Source: Mobula hypostoma
Taxonomy: Eukaryota
Assembly (NCBI RefSeq): GCF_963921235.1
Contig: NC_086097.1
Location: 18,664,001-18,728,000, forward strand
Length of the DNA stretch: 64,000 nucleotides
Reading direction: 5' to 3'
Under the pieces are notes generated by a model. It did no database searches. It saw only the letters and a list, made by a program, of their open reading frames with translations, and was not told the DNA's origin. Positions 8,886-53,827 of the stretch are shown in pieces. Positions within the stretch are counted from its first letter, which is position 1, and the number at the start of each line of letters is the position of its first letter. A program made the translations under genes and the position numbers.

Positions 8886-9052
8886 AAACGCAAAATAATC
8901 TGCAGATGCTGGGGTCAAAGCAACACTCACCACACGCTGGAGGAACTCAGCAGGTTGGGCAGCATCCATGGAAAAGATTGGTCGACGTTTCAGGCCGGAA
9001 CCGTGACGAAGGGTTCCGGCCCGAAACGTCGACCGATCTTTTCCACGGATGT
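8886..9052. mobile_element. Palindromic Penelope-derived unit with 12-bp TSD
   Basis: TSD tatccacactgt at 8874-8885 and 9053-9064; inverted arms meet inside the hammerhead motif. Confidence 0.85.
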
Positions 9053-10536
9053 TATCCACACTGTGTCTGCAAGATGAGAAGGAATGACACACACTGTGCT
9101 TGCAGGAGGAGAGATAACTCTACACTCTACGTCTACATGAGGAGGGATAAAGACACACTTTGTGCCTGCACGAGGAGAATGACTGTGCTTGAAAGAGGAG
9201 AGAGAACTGTATGTTCTGTGTCTGCACCAGGAGGGAGAAATGTAGACTCTGAGAATTACACATACTGTGCCTGAACAAGGAGAGATAATGACAGACTGGC
9301 CTAGCATGAGGAGGGACAAACACATACACTGATCCTGCAGGAAGAGGCAGAATGGCACGCTGTGTCTGCATGGGGAGAGCTTACTGTACACTCTGTGTCA
9401 GCACGAATAGAGATAAGGAAACTACGTCTGCATAACCACAGAGAATGATGCAGCCAGTGCCTGCCTGAGGGGGAAAATGATTCTGAGAGCCCGCACAAGG
9501 GGAGAGAATCACACAATCTACGCCTGCATGAGCAGACCCAACAACAGAGTCTGAGTACACCAGAAAAGGGAACGACAACACCTTGTGCATACACAAGGAG
9601 CGAGAAAACACACATTGTGCTTGCTCATCGAGGGAGAACGGTACACTCAGAGAGAAGTGGACACAGTGCCCAGCACGAGGACAGTGAATGATGCTCCCTG
9701 TCCTTGTCGATACGGGAGAACAGCAGACACCGAGCCTGCATGAGGAGGGAGGACGGCACACTCAGTTGCCAACACCACGGAGCACAGTGGCACAACAATG
9801 CGGGCACGAGGTGGAAGAATGAGGGACTCTGTGCTTGCTCAGGGAAAGAGAAGGACACGTCTGCACGAGGGGACAGGTTACTTCGTGCTTGCCAGTGGAG
9901 AGAGAATTGGACAATCTGTCCCTGCACGAGGAGGGAGAACTGTAGACCTTGTCCCTGCACGAGCAGGGAGAGCAAAACACTCGATCTCTGCAGGAGGAGG
10001 GAAAATAACACACTCTGTTCCTCCATCAGGAGGGAGAATAACACACTCTGTCCTTGCACAAGGAGGGAGGATAACACAATTTATCCCTTCAAGAGGAGGG
10101 AAAATAACACACTTCGTCCCTGCATAAAGAGGTAGAAAAACACTCTCTGTCCCTGCACAAGAAGGGAGAATAAAACACCATCTGTGCCCCTAGAAGAGAA
10201 AATGACACGCTCCTTGCTTGGACAAGCAGTAAGAACTGTACGGTACATACCTGCAGGAGCAGAGAGAAATACGCACCCTGTGCTTGCGTGAGGAGGGAGT
10301 GCAATGCACGCTGAGCTTCCACCAGTAAAGAGAACGACTTACTCTGTCCTTGCACAAGGAGAGTGAATGATACGCTCTCTGCGTGCACCACGAGAGAAAA
10401 CCGTACTCTCTGTGCCTGCACGAGGAAGGGGAATGAATACTCTGTTCCTCCTCAAGGGGAGAGTATGACACATTCTTTGCCTGAACAAGGGCTGAGAACT
10501 GTGCACACTGAGCCTGCACTGCTTTATCTGCCCTGA

Positions 10537-11086
10537 TGCCAGGAGCCGTCTGTAGAGGGGAGGGTACTGACAGTACCTCCAGTTGATCTGTCTTTTTGTG
10601 TGTTTGCCCCGAGCCATCAGTCTGTGGTTTTGCATTGCCACGTGCTCTTATTTGTTTTCATACCCCATGTGATCCTGTCCCCACTCCTGCTCCACTCCGG
10701 CCCCTGTATTACTGAGTACTCCGTCTCTCATCTCTTTCTCATTATTACCTGTTTTGCTGCCACTTCTGTCTCATTGTGCTCCACCTATCATCTGCCTCTC
10801 TGTTTATTGCTCAGTGTATTTTAGTCCTATGTTTTCACCTGTTTGTTGCCAGATTCGCCAGTAAATTATCCTGAGCCTTTCCAGCATTTGTATTTGTACT
10901 CTGTCTGTCTGAATATCGACTCTGCCTGTTTCCCAGTTTTGGTTTTTGGATTTCTCTGGATGTTTTGGTCTCTGCCTGAACTTTGACGCCAACTCTGTTG
11001 CCCCCCCCTGGATTTGCTACTCAGTAAATGTCACAGTGCACACAGTACTCGGTCTGCAATTGGGTCCCTGCTTCAGCGTCCTGACA
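10537..11086 (+). mobile_element. Probable solo LTR
   Basis: Termini tgccagga...tcctgaca (near-inverted, TG...CA); non-coding; interrupts the satellite; no TSD recognised. Confidence 0.6.
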
Positions 11087-11498
11087 GGTACACTCTGTGA
11101 TAGCACAAAGAGAGACACTACGCATTCTGTGCCTGCACGGGAGGAGATTAAGGCACACTGTGCCTCCTCCTGGATATAGAACTTCACCATCTATCCCTGC
11201 ACAATAACACACCGTGCATGCACAAGGAGAGAGATCAACGCACTTGGGAGCTGGAATGGCTCATATTGTGCCTGCAGGAGGAGAGAGAACAATCTACTCT
11301 GTGCTTTCATGAGGAGAGACCTGCATACTCAGTGTCTGTGTGAGGAGGGAGAACGATGAATCTGCTATATATTTGCATGTGAAGTGAGAACTGTGCTCTC
11401 TGTGCCTGTGTATGGAGAGAAACAACATTCTCTGTACATGGTTGCACGTGAATTGAGAAATGCACCCTTTGTGCTTGTACGTGGAGAAGGAACTACAC

Positions 11499-14110
11499 TG
11501 TTATGTTTTGTAACTTGAAAACATAAAAACTAATTAGAAAAAGACAAGGGAGCCTGGAGATAACTCATGTATGTTCACTTTTACTTTAAGCGAGATGCAC
11601 ACATGTAGCACATGGTGCCATAATGATGTATACTATTTACATACTTTTACAGATAACTATATATAACTGTATAACAGTTACAGCAGGGAAACAGGCCATC
11701 TCGGCCCTTCTAGTCCGTGCTGAATGCTTACTCTCACCTAGTCCCATCTACTTGCACTCAGCCCATAACCCTCCATTCCTTTCCTGCCCATATACCTATC
11801 CAATTTTTTTTTTAATGACGAAATCGAACCTGCCTCTACCACTTCTAATGGAAGCTCGTTCCACACAGTTACCACTCTGAGTAAAGAAGTTCCCCCTCGT
11901 GTTACCCCTAAACTTTTGCCCCTTAACTCGCAACTCATGTCCTCTTGTTTGAATCTCCCTTACTCTCAATGGAAAAAGCCTATCCACGTCAACTCTATCT
12001 ATCCCCCTCATAATTTTAAATACCTCTATCAAGTCCCCCCTCAACCTTCTATGTTCCAAAGAATAAAGACCTAACTCGTTCAACCTTTCTCTGTAACTTA
12101 GGAGATCAAACCCAGGTAACATTCTAGTAAATCTCCTCTGTACTCTCTCTATTTTGTTGACATCTTTCCTATAATTTGGTGACCAGAACTGTACACAATA
12201 CTCCAAATTTGGCCTCACCAATGCCTTGTACAATTTTAACATTACATCCCAACTCTTATACTCAATGCTCTGATTTATAAAGGCCAGCATACCAAAAGCT
12301 TTCTTCACCACCCTATCCACATGAGATTCCACCTTCAAGGAACTATGCACCATTATTCCTAGATCACTCTGTTCTACTGCATTCCTCAATGCCCTACCAT
12401 TTACCATGTATGTCCTATTTTGATTAGTCCTACCAAAATGTAGCACCTCACATTTATCAGCATTAAAATCCATCTGCCATCTTTCAGCCCACTCTTCTAA
12501 CTGACCTAAATCTCTCTGCAAGCTTTGAAAACCTACTTCATTATCTACAACATCACCTAGCTTAGTATCATCTGCATACTTACTAATCCAATTTACCACC
12601 CCATCATCCAGATCATTAATGTATAAGACAAACAACATTGAACCCAGTACAGATCCCTGAGGCACACGACTAGTCACCAGCCTCCAACTTGACAAACAGT
12701 TATCCACCACTGCTCTCTGGCATCTCCCATCCAGCCACTGCTGAATCCATTTTACTACTTCCATATTAATACCTAACGACTGAACCTTCTACTACTTCAA
12801 TATTAATACCCAACGATTGAACAATAACCCATAATGTATTATGTATACAACAAAAGCGCATTCAAACAATGTATTTACAATATTACTAAAGTGTACAACA
12901 CTCCTCCCTGCTTAGCTAGAAACTCCAAATCAATATAGAATGCATCTCAATTTATATACTTTTGGGATAACATCTTTCCTGATAAGGGAGGTCACTCTGT
13001 TTGACAGGAGAAACATGTGGCTGTGAAAACAATTTCGGGTTCTAGGTCCTCCTCCATAGTGGTTGTAGGAGTTGACTCTGAGACTGCAGGAAGTGGTTCT
13101 GACAGATCTGGACACTTTTCTTCTCCACTTCTTGGCTTTCCTCTCTGGATGTTGAGTTTGCACTCACGATTAAAAATGCTGCACCTCACACCAGTTTTTC
13201 AGAGTTGGTCTACCACCAATCACTGATCAGAAGTAAGAGAAAAGACCAACCTATACACTTAGGGTCGCACTCAAGGTTAAGAGGGCTACACTTCCCAGCA
13301 GTTTTCCCAGAGTTGAACTGTGACCAATCATTGAGTGGGATTTATTAGAAAGGGTGAATAAAATAAGGCAGGCACACGCTGCATGGTCATTGTTGTGAGT
13401 GGGCCAGTGTTGGAGTAGCTTTGGCTCATCAGGCTTCTGCATTTTCAGGCTCAGACCAGGTATTTGGTAGGTTTCTCTTTTTTTTCTTTATCCTTCATTC
13501 CTGGTGTATTAGGGCTCGGTTGGTGCAGTGAGAATGGCTCCGGGGCAGTGTGGTGTTACAAAATTGGTATTTGTTACTTATTGGCTATTTCAATTGCTTT
13601 AAAAGACTGCTCAGTCTCTCCAGTATACAATATCCAGTTATCTGTTGTGTAATCCAACACATCACTCTTCCTAATGTAGCCAGCCATTTCTGCTCTTTTT
13701 TATGATTATTTCTATTTATGAACCCTGCAAATTTTTCCATTTTCTGTCTTTATTTTAAACTTGAACGTCTTCTCCTCCAAAGAGATATGTTCCACTGCTT
13801 TTTTTTAAACTCGATATCTTGCTGCACTTCATCAGTTAGGTAGTTGTCCAGGTTCATTTTAAAAATACCTCATTACCACTGCTATGTTTTGTAACTCCAA
13901 AACATAAAACCAAATTAAAAGGAAAACAAGGGAGCCAGGAGATAACTCAAGTATGTTCGTCTTTACTTTAAGCAAGGTACATATGTATCACGTAGTGCCT
14001 GATGACGTATGCCATTTATGTACTTTTGCAGATAATCCACAATGCATCATGTAAACAACCAAGAATCCTTACTCAAACCATACATGTACAATATTATTAA
14101 ATAAACAACA
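11499..14110 (-). mobile_element. Internally deleted Gypsy element with two LTRs
   Basis: LTRs at 11499-12900 (split by CR1) and 13881-14110, TG...CA; PPT (rc ctcctccct) at 12901; PBS-like (rc cctcattacca) at ~13869; flanks tacac / tgcac. Confidence 0.85.
11660..12822 (-). mobile_element. 5'-truncated CR1 LINE inserted in an LTR
   Basis: 322-aa ORF 11796-12764 with PQGSVLG, YADD and RPNLEYCVQFWSP; 3' UTR tail; ataac on both sides. Confidence 0.93.
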
Positions 14111-14503: not shown

Positions 14504-14639
14504 CTAGTCCTGACGAAGGGTCTCGGCCTGAAACGTCGACTGCGCTTCTTCCTATAGATGCTGCCTGGCCTGCTGCGTTCACCAGCAACTTTGATGTATG
14601 TTGCTTGAATTTCCAGCATCTGCAGAATTCCTGTTGTTT
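14504..14639 (+). mobile_element. Short Penelope-derived unit with 6-bp TSD
   Basis: TSD acattt at 14498-14503 and 14640-14645; homologous to the 3' terminus of the Penelope fragment at 19662-20294. Confidence 0.85.
14506..14541 (+). ncRNA. Minimal type I hammerhead ribozyme motif
   Basis: AGUC-CUGACGA-AGGGucucggCCU-GAAA-CG-UC-GACU: both core boxes, stem I AGUC/GACU, short stem II, palindromic ACGU stem III, GUC triplet. Confidence 0.75.
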
Positions 14640-14699
14640 ACATTTTTGGTGTGTTTACCAGTTGATGAAGAGCAGCTCGACATATGCAGTACTGTTGTC

Positions 14700-14960: not shown

Positions 14961-15189
14961 GGCCAACATATTTCCTGAAAGTCATTGACCAGATCAAAGT
15001 TACGTGGATAGGGAATTGTTAGAGAGATGTCGGCTAAGCGCAGCCAAATGGGTAAGCATGGACAAGTTGGGCCAAAAATCCAGTTTTCGTGCTGCAAGCT
15101 GTGGAAACAGCAGAACTTCCCAGTTGTTGGCAAAGATGGGTATTGTAAATTTCCCAAAGGACAAACTACTGAAGAATTGCATGGCACAA

Positions 15190-15312
15190 AGTCCTGATGT
15201 AGGGTCTCGACCTCAAACGTCCTTCTGTCTCCACACACGCTGCCTAACCCATCGAGCTCCTCCAGCAGTTCATCTTTTGCCCCAGATTCTAGCATTAGCA
15301 GCTTTCCGTGTC
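15190..15312 (+). mobile_element. Degenerate Penelope-derived unit
   Basis: Starts agtcctgatgtagggtctcgacctcaaacgtc (eroded hammerhead). Confidence 0.65.
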
Positions 15313-19661: not shown

Positions 19662-20294
19662 AACACGAGGAATTCTGCAGATGCTGGAAATTCAAGCAAC
19701 ACACACAAAAAATGCTGGTGAATGCAGCAGGCCAGGCAGAATCTCTAGGAAGAGGTACAGTCGACGTTTCGGGCCGAGACTCTTCGTCAGGACTAACTGA
19801 AAGAAGAGATAGTAAGCGATTTGAAAGTGGGAGGGGGAGGGGAAGATCCGAAATGACAGGAGAAGACCGGGGGGGGAGGGATGGGGCTAAGAGCTGGAAA
19901 GTTGATTGGCAAAAGGGATACGAGGCTGGAGAAGGGAGAGGATCATGGGACGGGAGGCCTAGGGAGAAAGAAAGGGGGAGGGGAGCCCAGAGGATGGGCA
20001 AGGAATTATATTGAGAGGGAGGGAGAAAAAGGAGAGAAGATAGATAGATAGATAAATAAATAAAGGATGGGGTACGAGGGGGAGGTGGGGCATTAACAGA
20101 AGTTAGAGAAGTCAATTTTCATGCCATCAGGTTGGAGGCTACCCAGACGCAATATATGGTGTTGTTCCTCCAGCCTGAGTGTGGCTTCATCTTGACAGTA
20201 GAGGAGGCCGTGGATAGACATATCAGAATGGGGATGGGACATGGAATTAAAATGTGTGGCCACTGGGAGATCCTGCTTTCTCTGGCGGACAGAG
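19662..20294 (-). mobile_element. 5'-truncated Penelope-like element (GIY-YIG C-terminus, 3' UTR, terminal unit with hammerhead at 19759-19794)
   Basis: ORF 20093-20302 PVATHFN...GLLYC...RLEEQ..ILRLGSLQPDGM resembles the C-terminal part of Penelope GIY-YIG endonucleases; pyrimidine-rich UTR. Confidence 0.85.
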
Positions 20295-21329
20295 CAAGAC
20301 AACGTTTTTCAGGACCATGGTGCTACATCACAATCACTCCCTGAAAACTAGTCAGTAATCTGGCCTTCAATACACTTTGTGCGATTGGATCATAGATTTC
20401 ATCATGTAGATCCCGGTCAGTTCAGATTGACAAGTACATCTTCTCCACAATCTCCATCAGCACAGGAGCCCCACAGGGATGTGTGCTTAGTCCGCTGCTC
20501 TTCCTATGTGTGCGAGGCTAATTACAGCTCCAACACCATGTACAAGTTTGCTGATGACACTACTTTTGCGGGCTGTATCTAAAGGGGTGACGAATCAGCG
20601 GACAGGAGGGAGATTGAGAACTTGGCTGAGTAGTGTAATAACAACAGCCTCTTACTCAATGTCAGTAAGACCACAGAACTGATTGTAGACCAGGAGAGGG
20701 AAACCAGGGCTTCACGAGCCAGTACTCATCAGAGGATCAGAGGTGGAGAGGGTCAGTAACTTTAAATTCCTGGGTGTCACTAGCTCAGAGCCCCTGTCCT
20801 GGACCCACCATATAAATATTATTGCACAGAAAGCACGACAATGCCTCTACTTCCTCAGTAGTCTGCGGAGATTCGGCATCTTATCGAAAGCCTTGGCAAA
20901 CTTCAATAGATGTGTGGTGGAAAGGGTGCTGACTGGCTGCATTACGGCCTGGTATGGGAACACCAATACCCTTGAGTGGAAAATTCTACATAAGGTAGTG
21001 GATTTGGCCCAGTACATCATGGGTAGAACTCTTCCAACCATTGAGCACGTCTAGATGAAATGTTGCTGTAGAAAAGCAGGATCCATCATCAAAGACCCTC
21101 TCCACCCAGGCCATACTCTCTTCTTGTTGCTGCCATTGGGTAGAAGATACAGGTGTCTCAGGACTCACACCACCAGGTTCATGGACATTTACTACCCCTC
21201 AACCATCAGGCCCATGAACAAAAGGGGATAGCTACACTCATTTACAGACACATTCAAGAGCTATATTATATTGTTATTTCCTGCTTATTATTTGGTACTA
21301 TTTATAGTGTCTTTAAAAAGTATTCACCC

Positions 21330-21419
21330 GAAGGGTCCCGGCCCGAAACGTTGACTGTACCTCTTCCTATAGATGCTGCCTGGCCTGCTGCCTTCCCCAG
21401 CATTTTTTATGTGTGTTGC
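21330..21419 (+). mobile_element. Short Penelope-derived unit inside the Tc1 TIR
   Basis: Starts within the hammerhead core (gaagggtcccggcccgaaacgttgact); flanked by ttcacc. Confidence 0.75.
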
Positions 21420-22859
21420 TTCACCTGCCCCCCTCCCCCGGAAGTTTTTGTGTCTTATTGTTTTACAACATTGAATCACAGTGGGTGTAGTCTGGCTTTT
21501 TTGACGCTGATCAACAGACAGACTCCTTCGGGTCAAAGTGAAAACAAATTTCTACAAATTGGTCTAAATTTATTACACTTATAAAACACAAAATAATTGA
21601 TTGCATAATTACTCACCCACTTCAAGTCAGTATTTAATAAATGCATCTTTGGCAGCAATTGCAGCCTTGAATCTGTGAGCATAAGTCTCTATCAGCTTTG
21701 CACATCTGGCCACTGCAATTTTCCCCCATTCTTTTTTACTGAACTGCTCAAGCTCTATCAGATTGCATGGGCATTGTGAGTGAACAGCCCTTTTCAAGTC
21801 CAGCCACAAATTCTCAATTGGATTGAGGTCTGAACTCTGACTTACCCACTCCAGGACATTAACTTTGTTGTTTTTAAGCCATTCCTGTGTAGTTTTAGCC
21901 TCTATGCTCGGGATCATTTTCTTGCTGGAAAACAAATCTTCTCCCAAGTTGCAACTTTCCTGCAGACTGCATTAGGTTTTCATCCAGGATTTCCCTGTAT
22001 TTTGCTGCATTCATTTTACCCTCTACTCTCATAGACCTTCCAGGGCCTGCTGCAGTGAAGCATTCCCAAAGCATGATACACCACCATGCTTCATGGTAGG
22101 GATGGTGTATTTTTGATGATGTGCAGTGTTCAACTTACGCCAAACATAGCGTTTAGTCAGGTGGTCAAAAAGCTCAATTTTGGTTTCATCAGACCATGGA
22201 ACCTTCTTCCAGCTGACTTCAGAGTCTCCCAGATGACTTCTGGCAAACTAGTCGAGATTTCATGGGAGATTTTTTCCCAGCAATGGTTTCTCTTTGCCAC
22301 TTTCCCATAAAGCTGTGACTGGTGAAGCACCCGGGCAACAGTTGTATGTGCTGAAGTTTTAACACATCCAGAGTTGTCACAGGTCTCTTGGTGGGCTCCC
22401 TCACTAGTCCCCTTCTTGCAGTCACTCAGTTTTTGAGGACTGGCTGCTCTAGGCAGCTTTACAGCTGTGCCATATTCTTTCCATTTCTTGATGATTGACT
22501 TAACTGTACTCCAAGGGATATTCAGGGACTTGGAAATTATCTTGCATCCATCTCCTGACTTGTGCTTTTCAATAACCTTTCCGTGGAGCTTCTTGGAGTG
22601 ATCCTTTGTCTTCATGGTGTAGTTTTCGCCAGTAAACTGACTCAGCAGCAGTTGGACCTCCTCCTCCTCCGCTTTCTCCTCCTCCTCCTTCTACTTCTTC
22701 TTCTTCTAGTCCAACTTAAAGTTGCATTACCACCGCCAAATGGACTGCAGTGTTAAGTGGAGTGTTGGGAAATAAAACACCTGCTAGTTCTTGATCAAAT
22801 GAAAACTAAATTACCCCAAAAAGCCCTATAGATAGTAAAAAATAAAAGACATCATTGTG

Positions 22860-23640: not shown

Positions 23641-23685
23641 AACTAGGTAAGGTTTTTAAATGAAACCTGACAACCCCCAAAGCCA

Positions 23686-23904
23686 CATACATCAAAGTTG
23701 CTGGTGAACGCAGCAGGCCAAGCAGCATCTATAGGAAGAGGCGCAGTTGACGTTTCAGGCCGAGACCCTTCGTCAGGGTCTCGGCCTGAAACGTCGACTG
23801 CGCCTCTTCCTATAGATGCTGCTTGGCCTGCTGCGTTCACCAGCAACTTTGATGTATGTTGCTTGAATTTCCAGCATCTGCAGAATTCCTGTTGTTTGCG
23901 TTTA
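23686..23904. mobile_element. Young palindromic Penelope-derived unit with 14-bp TSD
   Basis: TSD aacccccaaagcca at 23672-23685 and 23905-23918; ~84-bp near-perfect inverted arms. Confidence 0.9.
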
Positions 23905-24480
23905 AACCCCCAAAGCCAGTAGTGCAGCCTGTTTTTGCTTTCTTTCAAGCTTATATGCTTCACATTGTAAAAGAATTTCAGCTTTCATAATGATGACAAC
24001 ACCTACACACCCCACAGGGATGTTTTCCAACAAGAGACGAGGAATAGTAAAGCATAGGATGCCCAATTTTAAGTTGAGTCAATATAATTCCTTCCCTTCT
24101 TGTCTTACCCCCTTCTCCCATTAATCCAACAGTTATATGTATTTTGTAAAGATGTCTCCCTTATGCCCATAATCCCACAGGTATTGCCATAATCCCCTAA
24201 TTCTTAGCCCCACCAACCCCGTAGCTTCTGATTTGCTAAATGGAAGGTCTATATCCACAGATCAACTTTTAACAGCATTGTCGGTCAAACAATCAACTCA
24301 TTCATTCCCCTCAACACCTCTATGTGCTGGAACCCATATGAAGCAGACATGTAATCCAATACTTTGAATATGAAGTAAAGTTTGAAGAGCTTCCTGCAGT
24401 AAATCTGACCCACTGCTAGAATGACCTGTTTTAAGACTAGTCAAAGCCAAAAAAGAATCTAAACAAATTGTAACTTTACA

Positions 24481-24577
24481 CTAGGAACTCTGCAGATGCT
24501 GGAAGTTCAAGCAACACACGTCAAAGTTGCTGGTGAACGAAGCAGGCCAGGCAGCGCCTCTAGGAAGAGGTACAGTC
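24481..24577 (-). mobile_element. 97-bp Penelope-derived unit starting at the predicted ribozyme cleavage site
   Basis: 5' end GACTGTACC; flanks ttgtaactttaca / ttttaactttgca (11 of 13 match). Confidence 0.8.
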
Positions 24578-24884
24578 TTTTAACTTTGCAAGGTCAAGTT
24601 TCCTCCACCCACTGTAAGCCCAAAATGATGGCAACAATGCTGCTGTATATACTGATAAATGGTTAGTAATACATTTCTTTATTGTTACCTGCAATTCAGG
24701 CACAAAAACAGCCACACCGGAGTCCAGTGGGTGCATTAGCAGAGCTCCAACAACCCACCATGAAACTCTATTAATTAGAGCATATTTATCCCGCCTTGTC
24801 AGGAGACAGCTGTCCCGCGGTTAAAAACTGTTTGTTTTTTTCACTAAAAGTGCTAGTAACAACTTTAAGAGATAATTCTGTACA

Positions 24885-25728
24885 ATGCCGAGACCTAAGA
24901 GCACCACAGTGAGCCACGTGGCTACAAGACAGAGCCCACAATCTGAAGTTCAAGCCACGCTAACGACACAGACGGACCAAGGCTCCAACATGGAGGATCT
25001 ACTGGATGAGGTTAGTCGTATGAGTTCCACTCTACTCGTGGTGGCTGCTGATGTATCTATGATTAAGGAAACGACAACGGAGTTGAAGAACTCTGTCAAT
25101 GCCATTCAAGAGAGGCTGACGGAAGCCGAGGGCCGTCTCTCCAGTGTGGAGGACACCATTGTGCAACTGGTGGGTGCCAGCGAGCAGAATAAGAAACGCT
25201 TGGACCAGCTGTGGAACCGTGTCGAGGAGCTTGAGAACAAGAGCAGACGCAACAAGGTCAGGCTGATCGGTCTAAAGGAGGGTGCGGAAACGGGCGGTCT
25301 GATTAAGTGTGTGCAAAGAATCATGTCTGAAATATTTGGCGTCGAACTGAATGCAAAGTTTGAGATTGAGAGGGTGCACCAGGCCTCGGCTCCCAGGCCG
25401 GGCGAGGATCGCACCCCCCAGGTTGGTCCTAATACAATTCTTGCGCTCTTTGGCTAGAGAGAAAGTGCTGCAAGCAGCCAAAGCAAAGAGAGGAGTTGAG
25501 TGGGAGGGATGCAAAGTTTCCTTCTTTCCAGATATGTCCAGAGAATTGGCTGAAAAATGGAGGGTATTTACTACGGCTCGGAAAATGCTGCAAAAAATCA
25601 ATGTGAGGTACACACTCGCTTATCCAGCAGTTCTACCCTTCACGTGGAAAGGAAAGAACAAGTTCTTTACTACTGCTGCAGAAGCAGAGAAATTCATTCA
25701 GAAACACTGCGGCATTGGCATTGACTGA
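24885..25728 (+). pseudogene. L1 ORF1p (coiled coil, RRM, CTD), one frameshift
   Basis: LENKSRRNKVRLIGLKEG, EIERVH, FFPDMS and YPAVL; frameshift in the C-run at ~25415. Confidence 0.88.
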
Positions 25729-26140
25729 GAGACAGGATTTGATCACAGTAATAAGTGGAGATAACTTTTTAGGTATAACAGGGTGGGTAGGGAGCTGGAT
25801 GAAGCAGACTGATTAGAGTCTTGCTAGCTGGCACGGCATTTTGCAGACCATATCATGTGTCTTTTTCTCTTCTGTTTCTTTGTGGAGCTTATCGTTCCTG
25901 TTTGTTTTTATTTGTTAGTTAATCTGGCAGGAATATATTATTTATATGTTTTTGGGTTATGTTGGTTGTTTACTTGTTGTTTGAAAGCGCAGTATTTCCA
26001 GTGTTTTTTGGTAATAATTGAGCGGGGGATAGAGTACAGCAGGGTTTTTTTTTGGACTATTTTTTCGGAGTTATTGCATTTCAAACTCAGCCATCCGGGA
26101 AAATGTATATTTTTGCACATGTGCGCATGAAGTTTAGGAC

Positions 26141-29100
26141 ATGAAAATGGTTAATTTCATATCATGGAACATTAATGGATGTGGAAACCCAATCAAGAGG
26201 AAAAAGAATTTATCATACCTTAAAGGTAAACAAATTGATGTTGCATTTGTCCAGGAAACACATTTTAAAGATGTTGAAGCACTGAAATTTAGAAGAGATT
26301 GGGTGGGCCAGGTATTCTATTCATCACTTAATAGCAAACAAAATCGGACAATGATTTTAATTAACAGAAAACTTAATTTTGTATTGCTTGGAGAATTTAA
26401 AGACAAGGAAGGCAGGATAATTTGTATAGATGCACTTATTAATGGGGTGAAAGCAGTACTTTGTAACATATATGCACCGAATAAGGAAGACGCATTCTTA
26501 ACAAGGTGAATGAAATTTTAGGCAGCAAGGAAGGAAAAATAATTTTAGCAGGAGACTTTAACCAAGTAATGGACCCTGTTATTGATAAAAGCAAATTTCA
26601 GACATCACCAATACCCAGGGATAGGGCTGCCTTACATCAACTTATTGAGGATATCGGTCTGGTGGATATATGGCGATTGGTGAATCCATCTGGAAAAGAA
26701 TATACATTTTTCTCTCATTGACATAAATCCTACTCTAGAATAGATTTTTTTTCTAATATCCAACTCTATTGTTGAACAGGTGATAGACTGTAAAATTGGC
26801 CCAACAGCATTATCAGACCATGCACCGGTTGAAATTCAAATTGATTTAAATACTGAAAGGGGAAGGAGGGGTAGATGGCGAATGAATACTATGCTTTTAA
26901 AAGATGAGATTTCAGTGATGAGCTGGCGGAGGATCTGACTTTGTTTTTTGAATTAAACGAAGGGACTACAGTAAAGCTGTCCTCGGTGTAGGAGGCATCC
27001 AAGGCGTATATAAGAAGAAAATTAATAGCACAAACATCTAAAAGGAAGGAAGAAAGTATGGAACAAATAAAAAATCTAGAGGCAGAAATAACCACATTGG
27101 AAAAGGTTTTAGCAAGACAATATACCGATGACTTATAAAAGAACTGTGCAATTTGAAATTCTAGCTAAATAACTTATATAACAAAGAAGCAGAATATGCA
27201 TTGTTTAGATTAAAAACAAATTTCTATGAAGTTGGTGACAAAGCTAGTAAGCTGCTGGCACGATATTTAAAGCAGCAGAATACTAATAGTGTTACACCTG
27301 TAATTAAGAAAGGGGATACATTAGTCTAAAGAAATAAACAAAGTCTTTCGACAGTTCTATGAACATATTTAACCATGACCAGGAGGAGCTGAATCAATTT
27401 TTTGCTAACATAAAATTGCCTACATTATCCCCACAACAAGCTGAGTCCTTGGATGCCCCAATTACTGAGGATGAGGTCAGACGGGCTATTGCGACTATGA
27501 AAATGAGGAAATCTCCGGGTATGGATGGCTTCCCAGTTGAATATTATAAGAAATTTCTGGACACATTGGCTCCTATTCTAACAAAAATCTATTCAGAAGC
27601 ACTTAATTTGGAATCTTTACTGAATACATTTAATGAAGCATTAATATAATTGATCCCAAAAAAAGACAAGGAGGCAATAAATCCCTCCAATTATAGGCCT
27701 ATAAGCTTAATTAAGATACTGACTAAAATACTGGCTTTGCAATTACAGAAAGTATTGCCATCTATAATTAATACTGACCAGGTTGGCTTCATTAAAGGCA
27801 GATCCTCAACTGACAATTTAAGGAGATTACTGCACTTAATATGGCTGAACTCCCCAAGTAGTATCCCAGTTACTGCCATCTCCCTGGGTGCCGAAAAGGC
27901 CTTTGACAGGGTTGAGTGGAGATTTCTAACCACAGCCTTGTCATTCCTTGGGTTTGGCTCTATCTTTAAATCATGGATTAGAATTTTGTATAAAAACCCT
28001 AAGGCTGCAGTTATTACAAATGGTATCATATCCCCATTTTTCAACATCTCACGGGGTATACACCAAGGCCGCTCCCTCTCCCCACTGTTATTTACGATTT
28101 TTTTGGAACCGCTGGCAATCATGATGAGAGCAGATCCAAATGTTAGAGGAGTGAAGGGAGACGGAAAGGAGCATAAGCTGATGTTATATGCTGACGATAT
28201 TTTATTACTGATTAGTGACCCTTCTAACTCCTTACCCCCACTAATGAAAACAATTCAATTTTACTCTGAGGTATCTGGTTATAAAATCAACTGCAATAAA
28301 TCTGAGGCTATGCCAATGTCAAAATTGTGTTTTTCAAATTCAGTATCTCAGTTTAATTTCAGATGGGTGCCAGTTGGATGAAGTATCTAGGGGTCAAACT
28401 TAATCAGAATTTGGAGGAAATAATTGCTTTAAATTATGACCCATTATTGAGTAGGAAAAGAAATAATCTGGATAAGTGGGGGGCACTGAGATTGTCACTC
28501 TGGGGTAAAGTCAATGTAGTTAAAATGGTCATAGCACCTCAGTTTAACTATCTTTCTATGATGCTTCCTTTAAATAGATCAGATTTGATCTACAAGCAAT
28601 ACAACAAAATTATCAGGGATTTTCTATGGGATAAGAAGAAGCCCAGAATTAAATTGAGTACAATGTGTATGTCCAGAGACATGGGTGGGCTCAGTCTACC
28701 AAATGTCAAGCCATATAAATAATCCTTTGAAATGGCCAAGTTAGCTAAACATTGGGACAGGGCTGATGTTAATTATAGAACGGAGCCTGGCTGCACCACG
28801 TTCTCCCCTTAACATCCACTCACAACATGTGGAAAACAAGACTAAACTAAATCCTATACTATCTCACTCAAGGAGCGTGTGGAGTACAATTCATAAAGCT
28901 TGTAGAATGTCACATTTAAACCAGTTATGCTCCTCGCTCCGGAATATCCCTGAGATACGCATTGGGAAAAGAATGGTGTACTGGAAAGAATGGAAGATTA
29001 AAGGTGTAGGTACAGTAGGTGATCTCTGTGAGAATGGGATTATTATGTCATATGTGGATTTGCAGAGGAAATATAACTTTGTAGATAAAGGGAATTTTTG

Positions 29101-29831
29101 GAAGTATTTGCAAAAAAGACATTGCGTTAGTAGCATATTCAAGAACGATGACCCACAAAGCAACCCTTTAACTGAATACATTACCACAGGAAGTTCATAA
29201 AGCGTCAGTGTTTTATAAAATGTTCAAGCATTCTGTGGGTGGATCGTGTAACAATCTCAAAGCAGTATGGCAGAAGGATCTTGGAAGCGATATTGAAGAT
29301 AATGAGTGGTCAAATATTTTATCAAATGTGGGTAGACATATTAGGGAAGCGAGAGGGAAATTTATTCAATATAAGATAGTACACAAATATTATTGGACAA
29401 CAACTAGACTCTACAAAATGGGGATTGTTGATAATAATTTATGCTGGAAATGTAAAAATGAGGTGGGCACATATTTTCACATGATCTGGGAGTGTTCCAT
29501 GGTTCATCTATTTTGGTGTAAAGTTCTTGATTTGTTGGGGAGTTGGTCGGGTTCCACAGTGCCCTTGTGCCCATGGCTTTGTCTCCTGGGTGATAGGACA
29601 ATGTTACCTAATGTAAACAATGACAAGTTCACTACTTTGAAGGTGGGTCTCATCATAGCTGAAAGAATTGTATTGCAAAACTGGAAAAAAACCCAGATGT
29701 CCCACTGTGAAGGAATGGACTGAGGAAATGATTAAGATTTCATCACATGAACACATGTTGGGAAGAATTAACAGTGAGGGAAAAGTGCAAGACATGTGGG
29801 ATCAATTTTGGTTGTATGTTAATTTAAACTT
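26141..29831 (+). pseudogene. L1 ORF2p (APE endonuclease, RT, CCHC), several frameshifts and stops
   Basis: SWNING, VQETH, GDFN, SDH, KSPGMDG, YRPISL, QG..LSPLLF, YADD and CWKC...HMIWEC. Confidence 0.92.
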
Positions 29832-34749: not shown

Positions 34750-35288
34750 TTAGTTTAAACCCTCCCTAACAGCTCTGTTAAACTTTCCCGCCAGGATATT
34801 GGTCCCCTTCGGGTTCAGGTGTAACCTGTCCTTTTTGAACAGGTCATACTTCCCCCAGAAGAGATCCCAATTATCCAAGAATCTGAAGCCCTGTCCCCTA
34901 CACCAGTCTCTCAGCCACGCATTCATCTGCCTGATCTGACTACTCTTGCCCTCGCTAGCACGTGGCACAGGTAGCAATCCCGAGATTACTACCCTGGAGG
35001 TCCTGCTTCTCAGCTCCCTTCCTAACTCCTGGAAATCTCTCTTCAGGACCTTCTCCTTTGTCCTATCTATGTCATTGGTATCAACATGTACCAAGACAAC
35101 TGGCTGCTCACCCTCCCCCTTTAGAATATTCAGGACCCGATCCGAGCCATCCTGTACCCTGGCACCTGGGAGGCAACACACCATGCGGGTATCTCTGTCA
35201 GGCTCACAGAATCTCCTGTCTGTTCCCCTGACTATGGAATCCCCCACGACTACCGCATTTCTCTTCTCCCTCCTTCTCTCCTGCTTCC
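34750..35288 (-). pseudogene. CR1 ORF1 SGNH/GDSL esterase domain, 5' truncated
   Basis: VVGDS, CLPGA, HVDTND and DRLHLN blocks; the first ~14 residues of the listed ORF come from flanking Nimb. Confidence 0.85.
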
Positions 35289-37865
35289 TATATAGGCTTC
35301 CTATCACTCCTAATTTCTGTAATTTAATCAATTGACCCTTCCTCCATAAAGGATCAGATCATTTTTTAATATCAGAAAATACTGCTGTTACAATTTCTTT
35401 ATTTACCTGTGGTTTCCTAATATCATCTTCGAAACATAAAATTTGAACCCAATGTCATTCTGCAATTCCAAATTCCGCTCTGATAAAACACTACATCACC
35501 TCTCATTTCCCAAATATAATTCAATTGCCGTATTGTTCCATAAGTTTACACAAAAGGGATGTTAGTGATATGGGTCTATAACTGAAAGGATCTTGGGGGG
35601 GGGGCGGGTTCCCAGGTTTTAGAATAGGCACAATTACTGCCATTTTCCATGAGGAGGGAAGATAGCCTAAACTCCAAATATGATTCAAAAATTTTAATAT
35701 TATCTCAAGAGAGTTGTCAGCCATATGTTTAAATGTACAGTAACATATATCATCCTTTCTCTGAAGCAGTTTGACTTGAACTATTAATAGCATTCTTAAA
35801 TTCACACAAAGAAAACTTCTACATCGCTAGTACAGTTACTGCTACAGCTGGCTTCCAACACATCAGGATATTCACTTAGAGCCTAGTCCCTACATTGTTT
35901 AGCCTCTTCACTTCAATTATTTTGATTAGGAATTGCAGCAAATAATCAAACCAATAACTCAACGTTTTCCATTTCAGTAACAATCATATTACCTTCTTTA
36001 ATCAATACTGGAATGTTATTAGCTCTACAAATCATCCCCCGCCCCCGCAATTTTGTTAATCATTCCCCAACCATCTCCAAGTTTAATAATCCTTCCAAAA
36101 CCACCACAATATGACCTCTAGAAAACCTTTTTCGCAACCGTCACTACTTTTCTCGCCATGGCCTGTGCCCTTTTATACTTAATAAGGTCACTCGGAGAGT
36201 GATACCTCTTAACTTTCCTAAACGCCTTATTTCTCTCCCTAATTGCATCTGCACACTCCTCAGTCCACCTTGGTACAATCTTTCTCCTGTTAATGCCCTT
36301 TCTAATAGGAATCACTTCCACCAGTTTGATGAATAATGTGACGTAACCTTTCATTGTTGAAACCCCCATCACCCTCAACATTCAGTTCTGATTGATATTC
36401 ATCACATAAAACCTTAAACTTCTCTGAATTTGCTTTACCAAAATTGCACCTCCTAAAGGTGGCCTCCAGTCTTCTATATAAATCCAAGCTCAAGCTTATG
36501 AATATAGGAAAATAATCACTTCCCAATGTTTTATCTCGTGTGACATCCCACTCACTCACTCCAGCCAGAACATTCGAAACTAAAGTTAAATCTATAGCAG
36601 TTTCTGACCTATTATGAACATTGACTCTTGTACTCCTCCCATCATTAAGAAACACAAGCTGGGAAATATTTAAAAATTCTTCTACAATCAAACCGTTACC
36701 ATCATTCTGCGAACAACCCCACAGTGGACTATGCGCAAAAATCCCCACACCATACAACCCTTAATGAGTTACATGTGTTTTCCTACAAATCAATCGAAAG
36801 CTTTCCATAAGGGTTTTAAAAATTTACCACTTTAATGCCCCTACCTGTTGAATCAAATACTTCTGCTACAAGTGCTTTATGCACTTCATTCACATCCATA
36901 ACCCTATGTCCTATCCCTTTCCTTATAAAACTTGCAACATCATACCTTCTAACAACTAACCTATCTCACTTAATTTCAATATAATCCTGCAAGGAAATAC
37001 TTAGATGTGGTAACAACCAGATTTCCTGAATATATATAATATCAGGAGGATCTGATAAATCAGAAATAAACTTCTTACAGTCTTGACCATTGGAAATCCG
37101 GCTTCTCGCATTCCACTGCAATATTCTTAAACCCATTACGTACCTTCACAAGGAGACTGAAATACAGATACCTCACCCGTTAGAGCTTCATTTACAGCTT
37201 CCCACATCACACCAGTTATACCCAAATATTTTTCAGCAGCCTTCAATATAGCTTTAATTTTCTCAGTGTGACTAGATGCTTGAGTAGTACAATTCACCAC
37301 ATCTGTTATAAATTCATCACAAACTTCATTCTATCAACAAGTAAAGTGTCTTTGGTAAGAAAAGTACAATGCCAACATGTAGCCTCAGACTTCACATTCT
37401 GTTCTCTGACTAATAATACTTTATCAACATTTGGTTTATCTTTTTGCAAGGCCCCTGCATAAGACACTGTACATTAACTGGTTGAACTTCAGCTGCCTTC
37501 TTAAGCACTTCACATCCTCTGTAAGTTGCACTATGTTCCCCTCCGCAATTACAACAATTAAACTTTCCGCCTTCACAATCTTCATACTTATGTCCCCCAC
37601 CACACTTACTACATCTTAGTTTCCCATGACATACTGCTGCAACATGCCCAAACCCCTGACATTTCTAACATCTAAACGGGGGAGGAATATAAGCTCATAC
37701 ATTATAACTAACATACCCCAAACTAACTTTATCAGGGACATTCACCTCATCAAAATATATCTATAGAGATAACTATTCATCCTTTCCCCATTTCTGACTA
37801 CTTGCAATCTCTTTTCCTCCTTAACCTTGCTTCCCAGTAAATGAGATTTAATCTCTTCTTTCAAA

Positions 37866-44093: not shown

Positions 44094-44192
44094 TACACAC
44101 ACAAAATGCTGGAGAAGCTCAGAAAGTCAGGTAGCATCTATGGAAAGGAGTAAAGAATCAATGTTTTTGGCCAAGATCCTTCATCAGGACTC
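44094..44192 (-). mobile_element. Degenerate Penelope-derived unit
   Basis: Ends ...ccttcatcaggact, at the start of hammerhead stem I on the minus strand. Confidence 0.7.
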
Positions 44193-48773: not shown

Positions 48774-48847
48774 GTATTAATATGAAATTGCTGGAAACAC
48801 TCAGAAAGAGGAGCTGTTAAATCTTCTCTTTTCTAATTAATTTGTTT

Positions 48848-51800
48848 TTGACCATAAGATCATAAGACCTAGGAGCAGAATTACGCCATTTAACCTATTG
48901 ATTTGGCTAAACCATTCCATCATGGCTGGTTTATTATCCCTCTCAACTCCATTCTCCTGCCTTCTCCCAATAATCTTTGATACCCTGATTAATCAGAAAC
49001 GTATCAAACTCCACCTTAAATAAACCCAATGACTTGGCCTGCACAGTGTTCTGTGGCAAAGAATTTCACAGGTTCACTAACCTCTGCCTGAAGCAATGTT
49101 TCCTCATCTCTGCTCTTAATGGATGGCCCTCAATTTTGATTCTATTCCCTTTGGTTCTAAATTCCCCCACAAAAGGAAACATTCTCTCCATATCCACTCG
49201 ATCCAGATTTTCAATGCTTGATAGGTTTTAAATGAGATTCCCCCCATCATTCTAAACTCCAGTGAGTACAGACCTCATACTGTATGTTAACCCTTTCATT
49301 CCTAGGATCATTTTTGTGAACCTCCTTTTGGCGTTCTCCAATACCAGCGCATCCTTTCTTAGGTAAGTTGCCCAAAATTGCTCACAATACTGCAAGTGCA
49401 GTCTGAACAATGCCTTATAAAGCCTCAACATTACATCCTTGCTTCTATATTCTAGTCCTCTCAAAATGAATGTTAATGTTGCATTTGCCTTCCTTACCAC
49501 TGACGCAACCTGCAAGTTAACCTTTCGGGAATCCTGCACAAGGACTCCAAGGTCCCTCTGCACCTCTGATTTTTGAATTTTCTCCACATTTTCAAAATAG
49601 TCCACGCCTTTATTCCTTCTGCTTACATTATATTCCAACTGCCACTTCTTTGCCCATTCCTCCAGCTTTTCTAAGTCCTTCTGCAGACAACTTGCTTCCT
49701 CAACACTAACTGCCTTCCAGCAATCTTTGTATCATCCATAAACTTGGCCACAAAACCATCAATTCCATCATCCAAATCATTGACATATAATGTGAAAAAA
49801 TGCAGACTCAACACTGACTCCTGTGGTTCACCATTAGTCACTGGCAGCTAACTACAAAAGGGACCCTGTATTCCCACTCTTTGCCTCCTGACAGTCATCC
49901 AATGCTCTATCCATTCTAGTACATTTCCCATAATACCGTAGGCTCTTATTTTGATAATTAGTCTCATGTGTGGTACCTTCAAAAAGGCCTTCTGAAAATC
50001 CAAGTAAACAATATCCACTGACTCTCCTTTGTCTCTCCTGCCTGTTACCCCCTCAAAGAGTTCCAACAGATTTATCAAGCAAGATTTCCCCTTTCGAAAA
50101 CCATACTGACTTTGGCCTATCTTATCATGTGGCTCCAAATACCCTGTAATCTCATCCTTAGTAATAGGCTCCAACATCTTTCCGATCACTGAACTCAGAC
50201 TAACTGCCCTATAATTTCCATTCTTCTGCCTCCCTCCCTTCTGCAAGAGTGGAATGACATTTGCAATATTCTGGTGTTCAGGAACCATTCCAGAATCTAG
50301 TGATTCTTGAAAGATCAGTACTAATGCCTCCACAATCTCTACAGCCACCTGTATCAGAATTCTGAGGTGCAGTCCACCTGGTCCTGGTGACATCTATCTT
50401 CAGCCTTTTCAGCTTCCCGAGCCCTTCTCCTTAGTAATAGCAACTATACTCACTTCTGCTCCCTGACACTGTTGCATTTCTGGAATTCTGTTACTTTCTT
50501 CCACAGTGAAGACTGAAGCAAAATACATATTAAGTTTGTGTGATGGAGAACAGTTTGTCTGCCATTTCTTTGTTCCTCCATTACTACTCTCCAGTATCAT
50601 TTTCCAGCAGTCTTATATGCACTCTCATCTCCCTCTTACACTTTATATATCCGGGAAAAAAGTCTTGTTGACTCCTCTTTCATATTACCGGTGTGTTATC
50701 TTCATATTTCATATTTTCTCCCTCTATGCCTTTTTTAGTTGCCTTCTGCTGATTTTTAAAATCTTTCCAATCCTCTACCTTCCCGCTAATTTTTGTTATA
50801 TTACATGCCCTCTCTTTTGCTTTGATGCTGTCTTTGACTTCCCTTAGCGGCTGCAGTTGCCTCATCCGGCCTCTAGGTTACTTCTTCATCTTTGGGATGT
50901 ATCTTTCCTGTACTTCTGAATTTCATCCAGAATCTCCAGCCACTGCTGTTTGGCCATCATCCCTGCTTGTGTCCCCTTCCAATTAACTTTGGCCAGGTCC
51001 TCTCTCATGTACATTTACTCTACTGTAATACTGATACATCCAATTTTAACCTCTCCATCTTAAACTGCCTCCTAAGGGTTCCTTTATCTTAAGCTTCCTA
51101 ATCAAATCTGTGTCATTATGTAACAGCCACAAGCTGCTCCAAAAGGTCATTTCATAGGTATTCTACAATTTCCCTCTCGGCATCTGATTTTCCCAATCTA
51201 CCAGCATATCAAAATACCCCATGATTATCGCAACATTGCCCTTTTTACATGCCTTTTCTAAATCTCCTTGTAATTTGCAGCCCAAATCCTAGCTATTATT
51301 CGGAGGTCTGTATAAAATTCCCATCAGGATCTTTTTACCCTTGCAGTTTCTTAACTCTACCCACAAGGATTCTACATCTTCTGATCCTGTGTCACCTCTT
51401 TCCAAGGATTTGATTTCATATTTTACCAGTAGAGGCATTCCACCTCTTCTGCCTACCTGCCTGTCCTTTTGATACAATGTGTATCCCTTGATTGAAGCAC
51501 CCAGCTGTGGCTTCTTTCAACCATGATTCAGAGATGCCCACAGCACCATACCTGCCAATCTCTAACTCCACTTCAAGGTCATGTACCTTATTCTGTATAC
51601 CGTGTGAATTAAAATATAACATCTTCAGTCCTTTTTGATTTTGGCCCCCTGTTACATTTTAACATCAAACTGACTGAAATTTTGCCCTATCATCTGCCTG
51701 TCTTTGCTCACAGTCTCATTACTTTAAGCGTCAACTTGTATATCCTCAGCCCAATCACTCAGGTTCCCATCCCCCTGAGCCAATAGTCATCAAACTACAG

Positions 51801-52050
51801 CTCGATGCTTTTCATACTGATGTAGTTATCAGGGAGACTGAAAGACTCCCAGAGTTCCCACACCTCACAAAAAGAACATGCCACTACCTCTGGACCCACT
51901 CTCAGTGCACTAGCTATATACTAACAGAAAGAAAAAAATACTAAACACTTACTTAGAGCTTCCTCCTGTGCTTGCTCAAGCCTGTTGAGCCAAAGCCAAA
52001 CCACTTTAACAATGTCTACTCACACAATGTCCACTCCTACAATGGTCTCT
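48848..52050 (-). mobile_element. Long, heavily decayed CR1 LINE
   Basis: Collinear with 31674-34750; DFQKAF, NYRAVSL and ESLWVELRN fragments. Confidence 0.9.
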
Positions 52051-52540
52051 TTCCCAATACTAAAATATCTATAACCGGAAAAAAACTGTTTCTCTTTCCA
52101 CATATTCTGCCTGATCTGCCGGGTGTTTCCAGCAGTTTCTGACTTTATTTCAGATTTCCTGCATTTGCAATGTCTTAAAATTTTCATTAAGTGTATTTAT
52201 TTACTTATTTATTTGTTTGTTTGCTTAGAGTTACAGCACAGTGAAGACCCTTCAATTACCATGTGACCAACTAAAGTATAGTCCTGGTTTAACTTACCAA
52301 AATGTGACATTTTGTACGTCTGAGATAAGTTCCATCTGTCATTTCCTTGTCCACTTTCCGAGCTAATCCATATCTTGCTGTAACATTACCACCAATGTTA
52401 GTGTCATTTTTAAACTTATTCATCATGCCCCCTACATATTCCTCCAAAACTTTAATGTACGTGACAAGTAACAGAAAGCTGGTCCAGGTCGCTCCGGTGC
52501 ATTGATGTCACAGTCCTGCAGTCCAACAAGTCAGGGACGT

Positions 52541-53445
52541 GATTAGATTAGATTATGAGGACACGCAGTCCTGTTTTATTGTCATTTAGTAATACATGCA
52601 TTAAGAAATGATACAATTTGTTCTTCCAGAATGATCAGAATCAGAATCAGAATCTTTTATTATCGCCAAGTATGTGGACACAAACAGGGAATTTGATGCC
52701 CGTTTCCTTGAGCTCTCGCTGTACAGAATCAAAAAGCAAACAAAACAATAGTGCAAATAATCGTGAACTATATACAATGAAGTATACCTGTCTATGTACA
52801 GGTGGACTTGGTTTATAATAGACTAAAATTCAAATGTTCATAAGACTGATGGCATATGGAAAGAAACTGTTCTTGTACCTATTTGTCCTGGCATACAGTG
52901 ATCTAAATGATATCACAGAAACACAAGATAAACCAAGACTAAAAAAAAAACTGACAAAAACCACATAATTATAACATATAGTTACAACAGTGCAAAGCAA
53001 TACCGTAATTCGATAGAAGAACAGACCATGGGCACAGTAAAAAAAATCTCGAAGTCTCTGGAAAGTCCCATCACCTCACGCAGATGGTAGAAGGAAGAAA
53101 ACTCTCTTCCTGCCATGAGCTTCCAGTGCCGCAAACTTGCCGATACAGCATCCTGGAAGCACCTAACCACAGCCGACTCTTGAGTCTGTCTGAAAACTTC
53201 GAGCCTCCAACCAGCCCTCCGACACCGAGCACCATCTCTGCCGAGCGCTTCGACCCCAACCTCGGCAACAGGCAATAGGCAAATCTGAGAATTTGGGGCC
53301 TTCCCCTCCGGAGATTCTCGATCGCACTTTAGCAGCAGCAGTGAAGCGGGCATTTCAGAAGTTTCTCCAGATGTTCCTCCGTGCTTCTCACGGCTGTCCC
53401 CATCAAATCAGGATTGTGCACGGCATCCTACTTCACAAATACGAT
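52541..53445 (-). mobile_element. Non-autonomous LINE-tail-type element with a nested Rex1-like 3' end (~52636-52905)
   Basis: (attag)n and (atcaga)n tails followed by tttatt; aatgat on both sides of the inner insert; GC-rich 5' part. Confidence 0.45.
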
Positions 53446-53617
53446 ACCCTTCTGAGGATGCAAAAGGGGTGTGAGGATTAGTTTTGTTAATTGCTGGTGC
53501 CACTGAAAACCTGATTTAAACAAAGCCAGACCTCTTATACCCAGGCGAGGTTTGCCTGAAGTGGTTGCAAACTTGGTCTTACTTCAATAGTGAGGATACA
53601 GATTTATTCCTTCACAA

Positions 53618-53827
53618 TACACACAAAAAATGCTGGTGAACGCAGCAGGCCAGGCAGCATCTATAGTAAGAGGTACAGTCAATGTTTAGGAAAGTCCTGA
53701 TGAAGGGTCTGGGCCCTTAACGTCAACTGTGCCTCTTCCTATAGATGCTGCCTGGCCTGCTGCGTTCACCAGCATTTCTTGTGTGTGTTGCTTGAAATTC
53801 CAGCATCTGCAGATTTCCTCATGTTTG
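53618..53827. mobile_element. Palindromic Penelope-derived unit
   Basis: Inverted arms; agtcctgatgaaggg at the junction; flanks attccttcac / attctttcac. Confidence 0.85.

Follow-up and report, generated by a model that had tools for sequence, protein, structure and literature searches.

The window analysed here, a 64,000-nt stretch of the Mobula hypostoma genome (contig NC_086097.1, positions 18,664,001 to 18,728,000 of the forward strand), contains 13 insertions, comprising 17 arms, derived from the 3' end of an endonuclease-bearing (EN+), Neptune-like Penelope element with a minimal hammerhead ribozyme. A bias of the 5' ends of these insertions towards the ribozyme is confirmed in this window. 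Element positions are numbered from C3 of the hammerhead core, taken as 0 (window position 19790, minus strand, in the long copy), so that stem I occupies -4 to -1 with its 5' strand and +28 to +31 with its 3' strand, and the predicted cut lies at +27/+28. The 5' ends were obtained from local alignments to the long natural copy and from read-outs of the junctions; in the old copies 4322, 1118, 55530 and 52085 the end positions are uncertain by a few bases. In the following inventory, in window coordinates, palindromes and their arms are given a strand only where one was assigned.

1020..1117, minus strand: copy 1118, simple and tail-less; 5' end -4/-3, adjoining a 13-bp target duplication (12/13; 1006 and 1117)
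4322..4547: old palindrome 4322; inverted tail-less arm 4322L (4322-4410), 5' end about +9
4419-4547: direct tail-bearing arm of the same palindrome, 4322R; 5' end -4, perhaps -7
8886..9052: palindrome 8886; tail-bearing arm 8886L from +9 (minus strand) and short arm 8886R, +1 to +48 (plus strand); 12-bp target duplication at 8874 and 9053
14506..14639, plus strand: copy 14504, simple and tail-bearing, core intact; 5' end -5/-4; possible 8-bp duplication (7/8) at both ends
15190..15311, plus strand: copy 15190, old, simple and tail-bearing; 5' end -4; upstream flank purine-rich, not the untranslated region (UTR) of the element
19662..20296, minus strand: copy 19660, the long copy and reference, tail-bearing; 5' end about -505; comprises the last 66 codons of the open reading frame (ORF; 20293-20096), the UTR, a 36-nt hammerhead, a downstream part of about 100 nt and the tail
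19759..19794, minus strand: hammerhead of the reference copy; 19794 is -4, the first base of stem I and the site of the breakpoint peak; predicted cut 19763/19762
21329..21419, plus strand: copy 21330, simple and tail-less; begins in the core at +4 to +6; possible 8-bp duplication (7/8)
23686..23904: young palindrome 23686; tail-less arm 23686L from -1 (minus strand) and tail-bearing arm 23686R from +7 (plus strand); turn at a 3-nt inverted microhomology; 14-bp duplication without mismatch at 23672 and 23905
24478..24577, minus strand: copy 24577, simple and tail-bearing; 5' end +28, exactly the predicted cut
44095..44191, minus strand: copy 44192, old, simple and tail-less; 5' end -4; flank rich in purines; no duplication found
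52085..52169, plus strand: copy 52085, old, simple and tail-bearing; 5' end +29
53616..53830: palindrome 53618; tail-less arm 53618L from +18 (minus strand) and tail-bearing arm 53618R from -4 (plus strand); two extra bases between the arms; 10-bp duplication (9/10)
55520..55722, minus strand: copy 55530, decayed, internally deleted and tail-bearing, a locally duplicated pair counted once; 5' end about -3

All ten copies named in a preliminary description of this DNA exist and are placed as it described them, and its four palindromes are real; it overlooked 52085 and the tandem pair at 55520-55722. Its statement that a single copy extends into coding sequence was borne out by tblastn with three homologues, which found only the 19660 copy, and the 64-kb window holds no full element and no further ORF or UTR pieces. 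At their 3' ends the tail-bearing arms stop at +114 to +128 (some old copies at +114 to +118) and the tail-less arms at +89 to +93, with the exception of 8886R (+48). These two classes, at about +90 and about +128, are the published tail signature (PMC11167929). The tail is 35-39 nt long and present on one arm only in 4322, 23686 and 53618, and in 8886 the second arm is shorter. Target duplications are clear in four of the 13 insertions (1118, 8886, 23686 and 53618) and possible in three (14504, 21330 and 24577); none was found for the other six. Remote duplications sought as far as 4 kb upstream of 15190, 44192 and 52085 matched at best 11/14, the level of chance, and a candidate decayed inverted arm upstream of 44192 was not significant (P=0.15). 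The 8886 palindrome sits inside a degenerate 33-nt minisatellite (window 8470-11400).

The last 66 codons of the ORF, as preserved in the long copy, are 76-86% identical to six ray proteins that are uncharacterised or mis-named (nine matches among 12 candidates in the protein comparison). The 66-codon peptide alone has no Pfam match, and a GIY-YIG match was obtained in four of six ray homologues scanned, at E values of 5e-4 to 2e-3, below Pfam's cut-off; the homologues with this match also carry the YxDD motif of reverse transcriptase (RT). The combination of RT and C-terminal GIY-YIG in one ORF, a feature of EN+ Penelope-like elements (PLEs), is found via these homologues and not in the window itself. 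A Cys-rich linker between RT and endonuclease, visible by eye in homologues P0001-P0003 and P0005-P0006, is a feature of the Neptune clade, and Nematis also has it (PMC8557442, PMC3846280). Further features of EN+ PLEs are present in the window: a hammerhead motif in the terminal repeat, target site duplications, and an inverted 5'-truncated arm with a one-sided tail, four of the 13 insertions being palindromic. A non-LTR retrozyme (LTR, long terminal repeat), which would form a head-to-tail array with a hammerhead in each unit, was rejected, as only the pair at 55520-55722 is tandem and it is decayed with a broken core.

The family is very abundant: 137,154 contigs of one sequencing run align to the long copy. 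Protein-based locus scans gave a single distant relative, L116, and none in viral contigs. At L116:1240-1275 a minimal hammerhead follows a pyrimidine-rich UTR without AG before stem I, and the Penelope ORF is 49% identical; the contig is filed as an Endozoicomonas metagenome-assembled genome and is probably host DNA in the bin. Four ray host isoforms (P0003, P0007, P0008 and P0009, annotated as DIPK1C, neuromedin-U receptor 1, VKORC1L1 and ABHD14A) include the C-terminal piece of the element's ORF, and two of them leave it exactly at the last ORF codon, which suggests a splice donor, although gene-model artefacts are possible.

The hammerhead is of the minimal type I, with a CUGANGA and GAAA core, an extra base, the G10.1-C11.1 pair and a loop-less stem III. 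A strict scan of the window for the core returned 14510, 23776 and 19790, plus one chance match in a CR1 element; in the remaining arms the core is mutated. Rfam gave no hammerhead match at E<=10, only hairpin look-alikes. In an alignment of ten arms, one row of which is out of register, 77.9% of the cells of stems I and II are paired, compared with at most 48.5% when the stems are slid, and there is no excess over shuffles (208/500). Scans for the hammerhead motif turned up 1 stretch in prokaryotic, 0 in viral and 114 in metagenome collections; none aligned beyond the motif, and all were dropped as chance.

The 5' ends lie at -4 (six arms), -3, -1, +1, +5, +7, +9 (two arms), +18, +28, +29 and about -505. 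Sixteen of the 17 arms begin between -5 and +31, a 37-nt ribozyme zone, whereas none begins farther downstream, as far as such copies are detectable, and one begins far upstream. The clustering within the ribozyme noted in the preliminary description thus stands, as does its claim that random 5' truncation does not account for the pattern. A constant-hazard null tuned in its own favour is rejected, for detection limits of 35-60 nt, with P between 2e-10 and 4e-8 when arms are counted and between 3e-8 and 6e-6 when insertions are counted (12/13 in the zone); these values are optimistic in that the zone was picked after the data were seen. The arms of one insertion are also not independent. The hazard, peak and shift statistics include 55530 once, and those run with the CR1 control omit it (15/16 arms). 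A profile made from sequence downstream of the ribozyme alone gave 17 matches in the window at E<0.001, all from known arms (8886R was missed), and found no copy lacking ribozyme sequence; the next match had an E value of 0.21, and the best score in ten shuffled windows was 11.9 bits. Of fragments planted as a test, 9/11 and 8/9 were recovered at a length of 35 nt and only 3/11 and 1/9 at 25 nt. Because recovery at 35 nt is high, copies beginning between +32 and about +55 (tail-less) or +93 (tail-bearing) would have been detectable, and none was seen.

Within the zone, the ends peak at -5 to -3, the upstream edge at stem I, with seven of 16 arms (P=1.4e-4; about 0.005 after window scanning). 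The simple copies that end at -4 (1118, 14504, 15190 and 44192) appear to have true ends there, because their upstream flanks are not UTR-like (20-52% pyrimidine, as against 80% in the element UTR) and because a target duplication adjoins the end in two of the four (1118 and 14504). The stop is locked to position, since arms primed about 38 nt apart end at the same place: the mean 5' end is +6.0 in nine tail-bearing arms and +3.4 in seven tail-less arms (P=0.96), and the 38-nt shift expected from length-based stopping is rejected (P=0.0009). This internal comparison of two primer sites is a better control than the constant-hazard null. The character of the RNA switches at about -4, from the nearly unstructured pyrimidine tract of the UTR, which is about 300 nt long in the long copy, to a structured module; predicted structure is almost absent from -300 to -35 and present from -30 onward.

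Evidence from beyond the window came from four runs, covering at least three organisms, the contigs of which were aligned to the long copy, with six loose-end sites listed per run. Among the sites listed, 19794 (-4) is a loose-end site in all four runs (565, 535, 516 and 66 contigs), as is the tail end, 19662 (+128; 973, 1015, 690 and 141 contigs). The loose parts at 19794 have median lengths of 82-137 nt, and their agreement is 0.39-0.43, compared with 0.41 at the true 3' end and 0.65-0.69 for continuing element. The contig evidence agrees with the window, short of proving the -4 peak. The cut site does not occur among the 24 of 2873 loose-end rows listed, which is uninformative, as the known +90 end is likewise absent from them. 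A second frequent 3' end, at window 19674 (+116; 411 and 425 contigs in runs X1 and X5), is probably the tail end of another subfamily; 52085 and 55530 end nearby.

The palindromes 8886 and 23686, members of different subfamilies (76% and 97% identity to 14504), nevertheless have a common turn at a 3-nt inverted match (-1..+1 with +7..+9). In 53618, -4 is joined to +18 with the two extra bases between, and the junction of 4322 has its own short hairpin. With three different junctions among the four, the palindromes do not all descend from one master, a possibility that the preliminary description had named as one that could overturn its view; 8886 and 23686 are the two that are alike. No deep opposite-strand joint was seen among the 15 joints listed, with 228 more beyond these, which is weak evidence against one palindromic master. 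Its suggestion that the ribozyme may set the site of second-strand priming or template switching has support in so far as short inverted matches inside the ribozyme fit the joins of 8886 and 23686. In these two the start of the tail-bearing arm lies farther downstream than that of the tail-less arm, a geometry that excludes a single self-priming cDNA, because such a cDNA would have to copy sequence that it does not contain. We infer that the palindromes arose from pairs of cDNAs, one primed at each end of the target, that were linked through their 3' ends. L1 twin priming is similar in that cDNA is primed at both target ends and the two cDNAs are joined by microhomology; the two L1 pieces, however, do not overlap. 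Because the arms here copy the same sequence, unlike those of L1, two RNAs or two terminal repeats would be needed. The junction of EN+ PLEs has been explained instead by self-priming on an antisense template (PMC3846280). That route may also apply here, although two separately primed cDNAs fit the arm geometry better.

To account for the position of the ends, we favour, tentatively and at a little less than an even chance, the reading that the usable 5' end of the RNA template lies at stem I and that RT runs off there. The copies would be direct insertion products of the element, the protein of which would nick the target DNA. RT would then start internally, either about 90 or about 128 nt beyond the ribozyme core, and the cDNA would usually extend to -4 (the first base of stem I), where the template would itself end, or stop a few bases before it. 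That RNA end may be the transcription start, or it may be left by 5'-3' trimming halted at the folded or protein-bound ribozyme module. One cDNA would give a simple copy; judging from their anatomy, the palindromes would result from two cDNAs, one per target end, joined head to head via short inverted matches and nibbling, and self-cleaved RNA may supply a minor class that starts at +28. Two-site internal initiation, with extension of both target strands, has been shown in vitro for a lizard relative (PMC11167929), and transcription starts within the upstream pseudo-long terminal repeat (pLTR; PMC6765202, PMC2377424). The more specific proposal that the hammerhead, folded or protein-bound, sets the 5' boundary of the copied RNA without cutting, as a trimming barrier or a transcription-start site, is one that we regard as doubtful. 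An initiator-like match at -4, by the consensus as generally quoted, is too short to count.

Several observations weigh against a template end at stem I. Nine of the 16 arms lie away from the -5 to -3 peak, the sample is 13 insertions in one window, and an extra G of the kind derived from a cap occurs at one of the six clear -4 ends and is not consistent. In the CR1 comparison the 5' ends were spread over 206-3061 nt from the 3' end (ten copies, plus the reference), but four of the ten lie within 49 nt, so that small clusters arise in other families too; this CR1 cluster (window 15700, 4233, 30910 and 57651; reference 3118-3166) could be a hotspot or a similarity boundary, and two further copies end at 3510-3512. 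Beyond the window the evidence consists of contigs and not of RNA 5' ends, run X16, taken as RNA by guess, says nothing about transcript ends, and with 24 of 2873 loose-end rows listed, -4 cannot be ranked against all sites. The consensus of the 19794 loose parts is a coherent purine-rich string, and because it is coherent a subfamily with another UTR contributes to the pile, by a crude estimate that assumes the meaning of 'agreement' 24-41% of it. Copies of that subfamily cut anywhere upstream also pile up at -4, and the pile is inflated accordingly. In run X1 the summed depth at the ORF end is about 0.39 of that at the ribozyme, summed contig depth not being copy number; many copies genome-wide read past -4, and the window's figure of one insertion in 13 reaching the ORF is not generalisable.

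The preliminary description had proposed that the ribozyme fold stalls RT, or that cleavage makes the template end, and as the main cause we consider this quite unlikely. RT reading from +128 towards -4 should be halted by the fold at +31 or +19, and because it reads in this direction a cut RNA predicts a stop at +28. Copy 24577 does begin exactly at +28, without microhomology, 52085 begins at +29, and 53618L begins at +18, beside the 3' edge of stem II. Yet two of 16 arms at the cut are not above chance within the zone (P=0.21), and 13 of 16 read past +19, through both 3' stem edges; the peak lies at the opposite, upstream edge, where the whole motif has already been read. The monomer folds weakly (-7.8 and -11.7 kcal/mol; z 0.80 and -0.39), no better than shuffles do, although a protein-assisted or dimeric fold could exceed the strength computed for the monomer. 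A hairpin of the cDNA as the cause of the stop was also rejected, its 3'-end pairing being unremarkable at -4 (0.20, against 0.89 at +15 and 0.87 at -18). With the one Penelope protein tried in vitro, that of the lizard element, ribozyme mutants left insertion and its size unaltered, and the cut site was not an end point of any RNA read (PMC11167929). Were the obstacle instead just upstream, the pyrimidine tract, bound by splicing or heterogeneous nuclear ribonucleoprotein (hnRNP) proteins or acting through G-rich cDNA, could stop RT with the right polarity for a stall; in a variant, splicing to the AG at -4/-3 would replace whatever lies farther upstream. We hold this unlikely. The reference has the tract and an AG at both -8/-7 and -4/-3, in keeping with the acceptor consensus as commonly given. 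The intron of D. virilis Penelope extends to the 5' end of helix I (PMC4209133). Opposed to this reading are the -4 copies, which have no common first exon upstream, the duplications that adjoin -4 in 1118 and 14504, the G that older copies carry at -4 and L116, the pyrimidine-rich UTR of which lacks an AG before stem I; among the 15 joints listed, with 228 more outside the listing, none has intron ends.

Another possibility, which we also think improbable, is survivorship: copies starting at stem I would be the smallest unit that can be mobilised again, and many short non-autonomous sources would pass on the -4 boundary. The terminal repeats of PLEs are mobilised in trans (PMC3846280), pLTRs have given rise to retrozymes (bioRxiv 10.64898/2026.07.22.740005), 8886 and 23686 share their junction, and where no duplication was found, beside 15190 and 44192, a carried-over flank is allowed. 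The flanks upstream of the -4 copies are, however, mutually unrelated, the boundary recurs in old and young subfamilies, and 8886 and 23686 differ widely, as noted above. Templates cut to +20 of the ORF worked in vitro, where an intact ribozyme was unneeded (PMC11167929). We give very little weight, finally, to an artefact in which the cluster marks where subfamily similarity ends and copies were spotted by their ribozyme. The resemblance of the 19794 loose-end consensus to the UTR of another subfamily, the single reference copy and the small CR1 cluster would fit it. For the window it is largely refuted: the ribozyme-free search gave no extra copies, other ORF or UTR pieces are absent, and what flanks the copies is a target duplication, an inverted arm or purine-rich DNA rather than UTR.

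The rest of the window contains other repeats, several of them named by eye: decayed pol pieces resembling an LTR retrotransposon, with RT- and integrase-like frames (5206-8094); a Tc1-like transposon fragment in two inverted copies, 83-89% alike (21497-22554 and 59520-60606); a broken L1-like element with ORF1- and ORF2-like frames (24876-29723); and a tandem array of 30-nt units in which both strands have long open frames (60700-62300). The frame at 34750-35358, which precedes the long CR1 ORF, resembles an esterase, of the SGNH kind to judge by its motif.

Much of this anatomy agrees with known systems. EN+ PLEs show heavy 5' truncation, head-to-head arms with a palindromic junction, solo terminal repeats, a one-sided tail of 30-40 bp and target duplications of 8-14 bp, but their 5' ends are not placed relative to the ribozyme in the excerpts of PMC8557442 and PMC3846280. 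PAc, the Poseidon element of Anolis, is alike in that its two internal start sites make the tail and both target strands are extended; shortening its templates at the 5' end gave shorter products, and ribozyme activity was dispensable. That study, as excerpted, maps RT starts and not RT ends (PMC11167929), and the element here looks Neptune-like, given the Cys-rich linker in its homologues. The minimal hammerheads of metazoan PLEs share the core, the extra base before stem II, the G-C pair at the base of stem II, the absence of a stem III loop and the 4-bp stem I; they are mostly single motifs on truncated copies, with some opposite-strand pairs. The excerpted text offers no breakpoint map (PMC4209133). 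Non-LTR retrozymes likewise derive from pLTRs, are short and non-coding and carry a type I hammerhead, but they form head-to-tail arrays, unlike the dispersed single or head-to-head insertions seen here (bioRxiv 10.64898/2026.07.22.740005).

Elements of this type, with their minimal hammerhead, tail and inverted arms, have been published; in the open-licence papers and preprints searched there was no report of 5' ends clustering at a Penelope hammerhead. Both the role of the hammerhead in Penelope and the formation of head-to-head copies are stated as open in PMC8557442 and PMC11167929. A stop fixed at a single base, the first of stem I, whatever the start site, provides a sharp test of that role, and the abundance of the family would make a genome-wide map very powerful. 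Should the peak be no more than a transcription start or a subfamily boundary, it would be a modest addition to a known pattern. If instead the hammerhead does set the boundary, very many genomic copies would record the footprint of the Penelope ribonucleoprotein, and the weakly active Penelope hammerhead would have a structural job in transposition.

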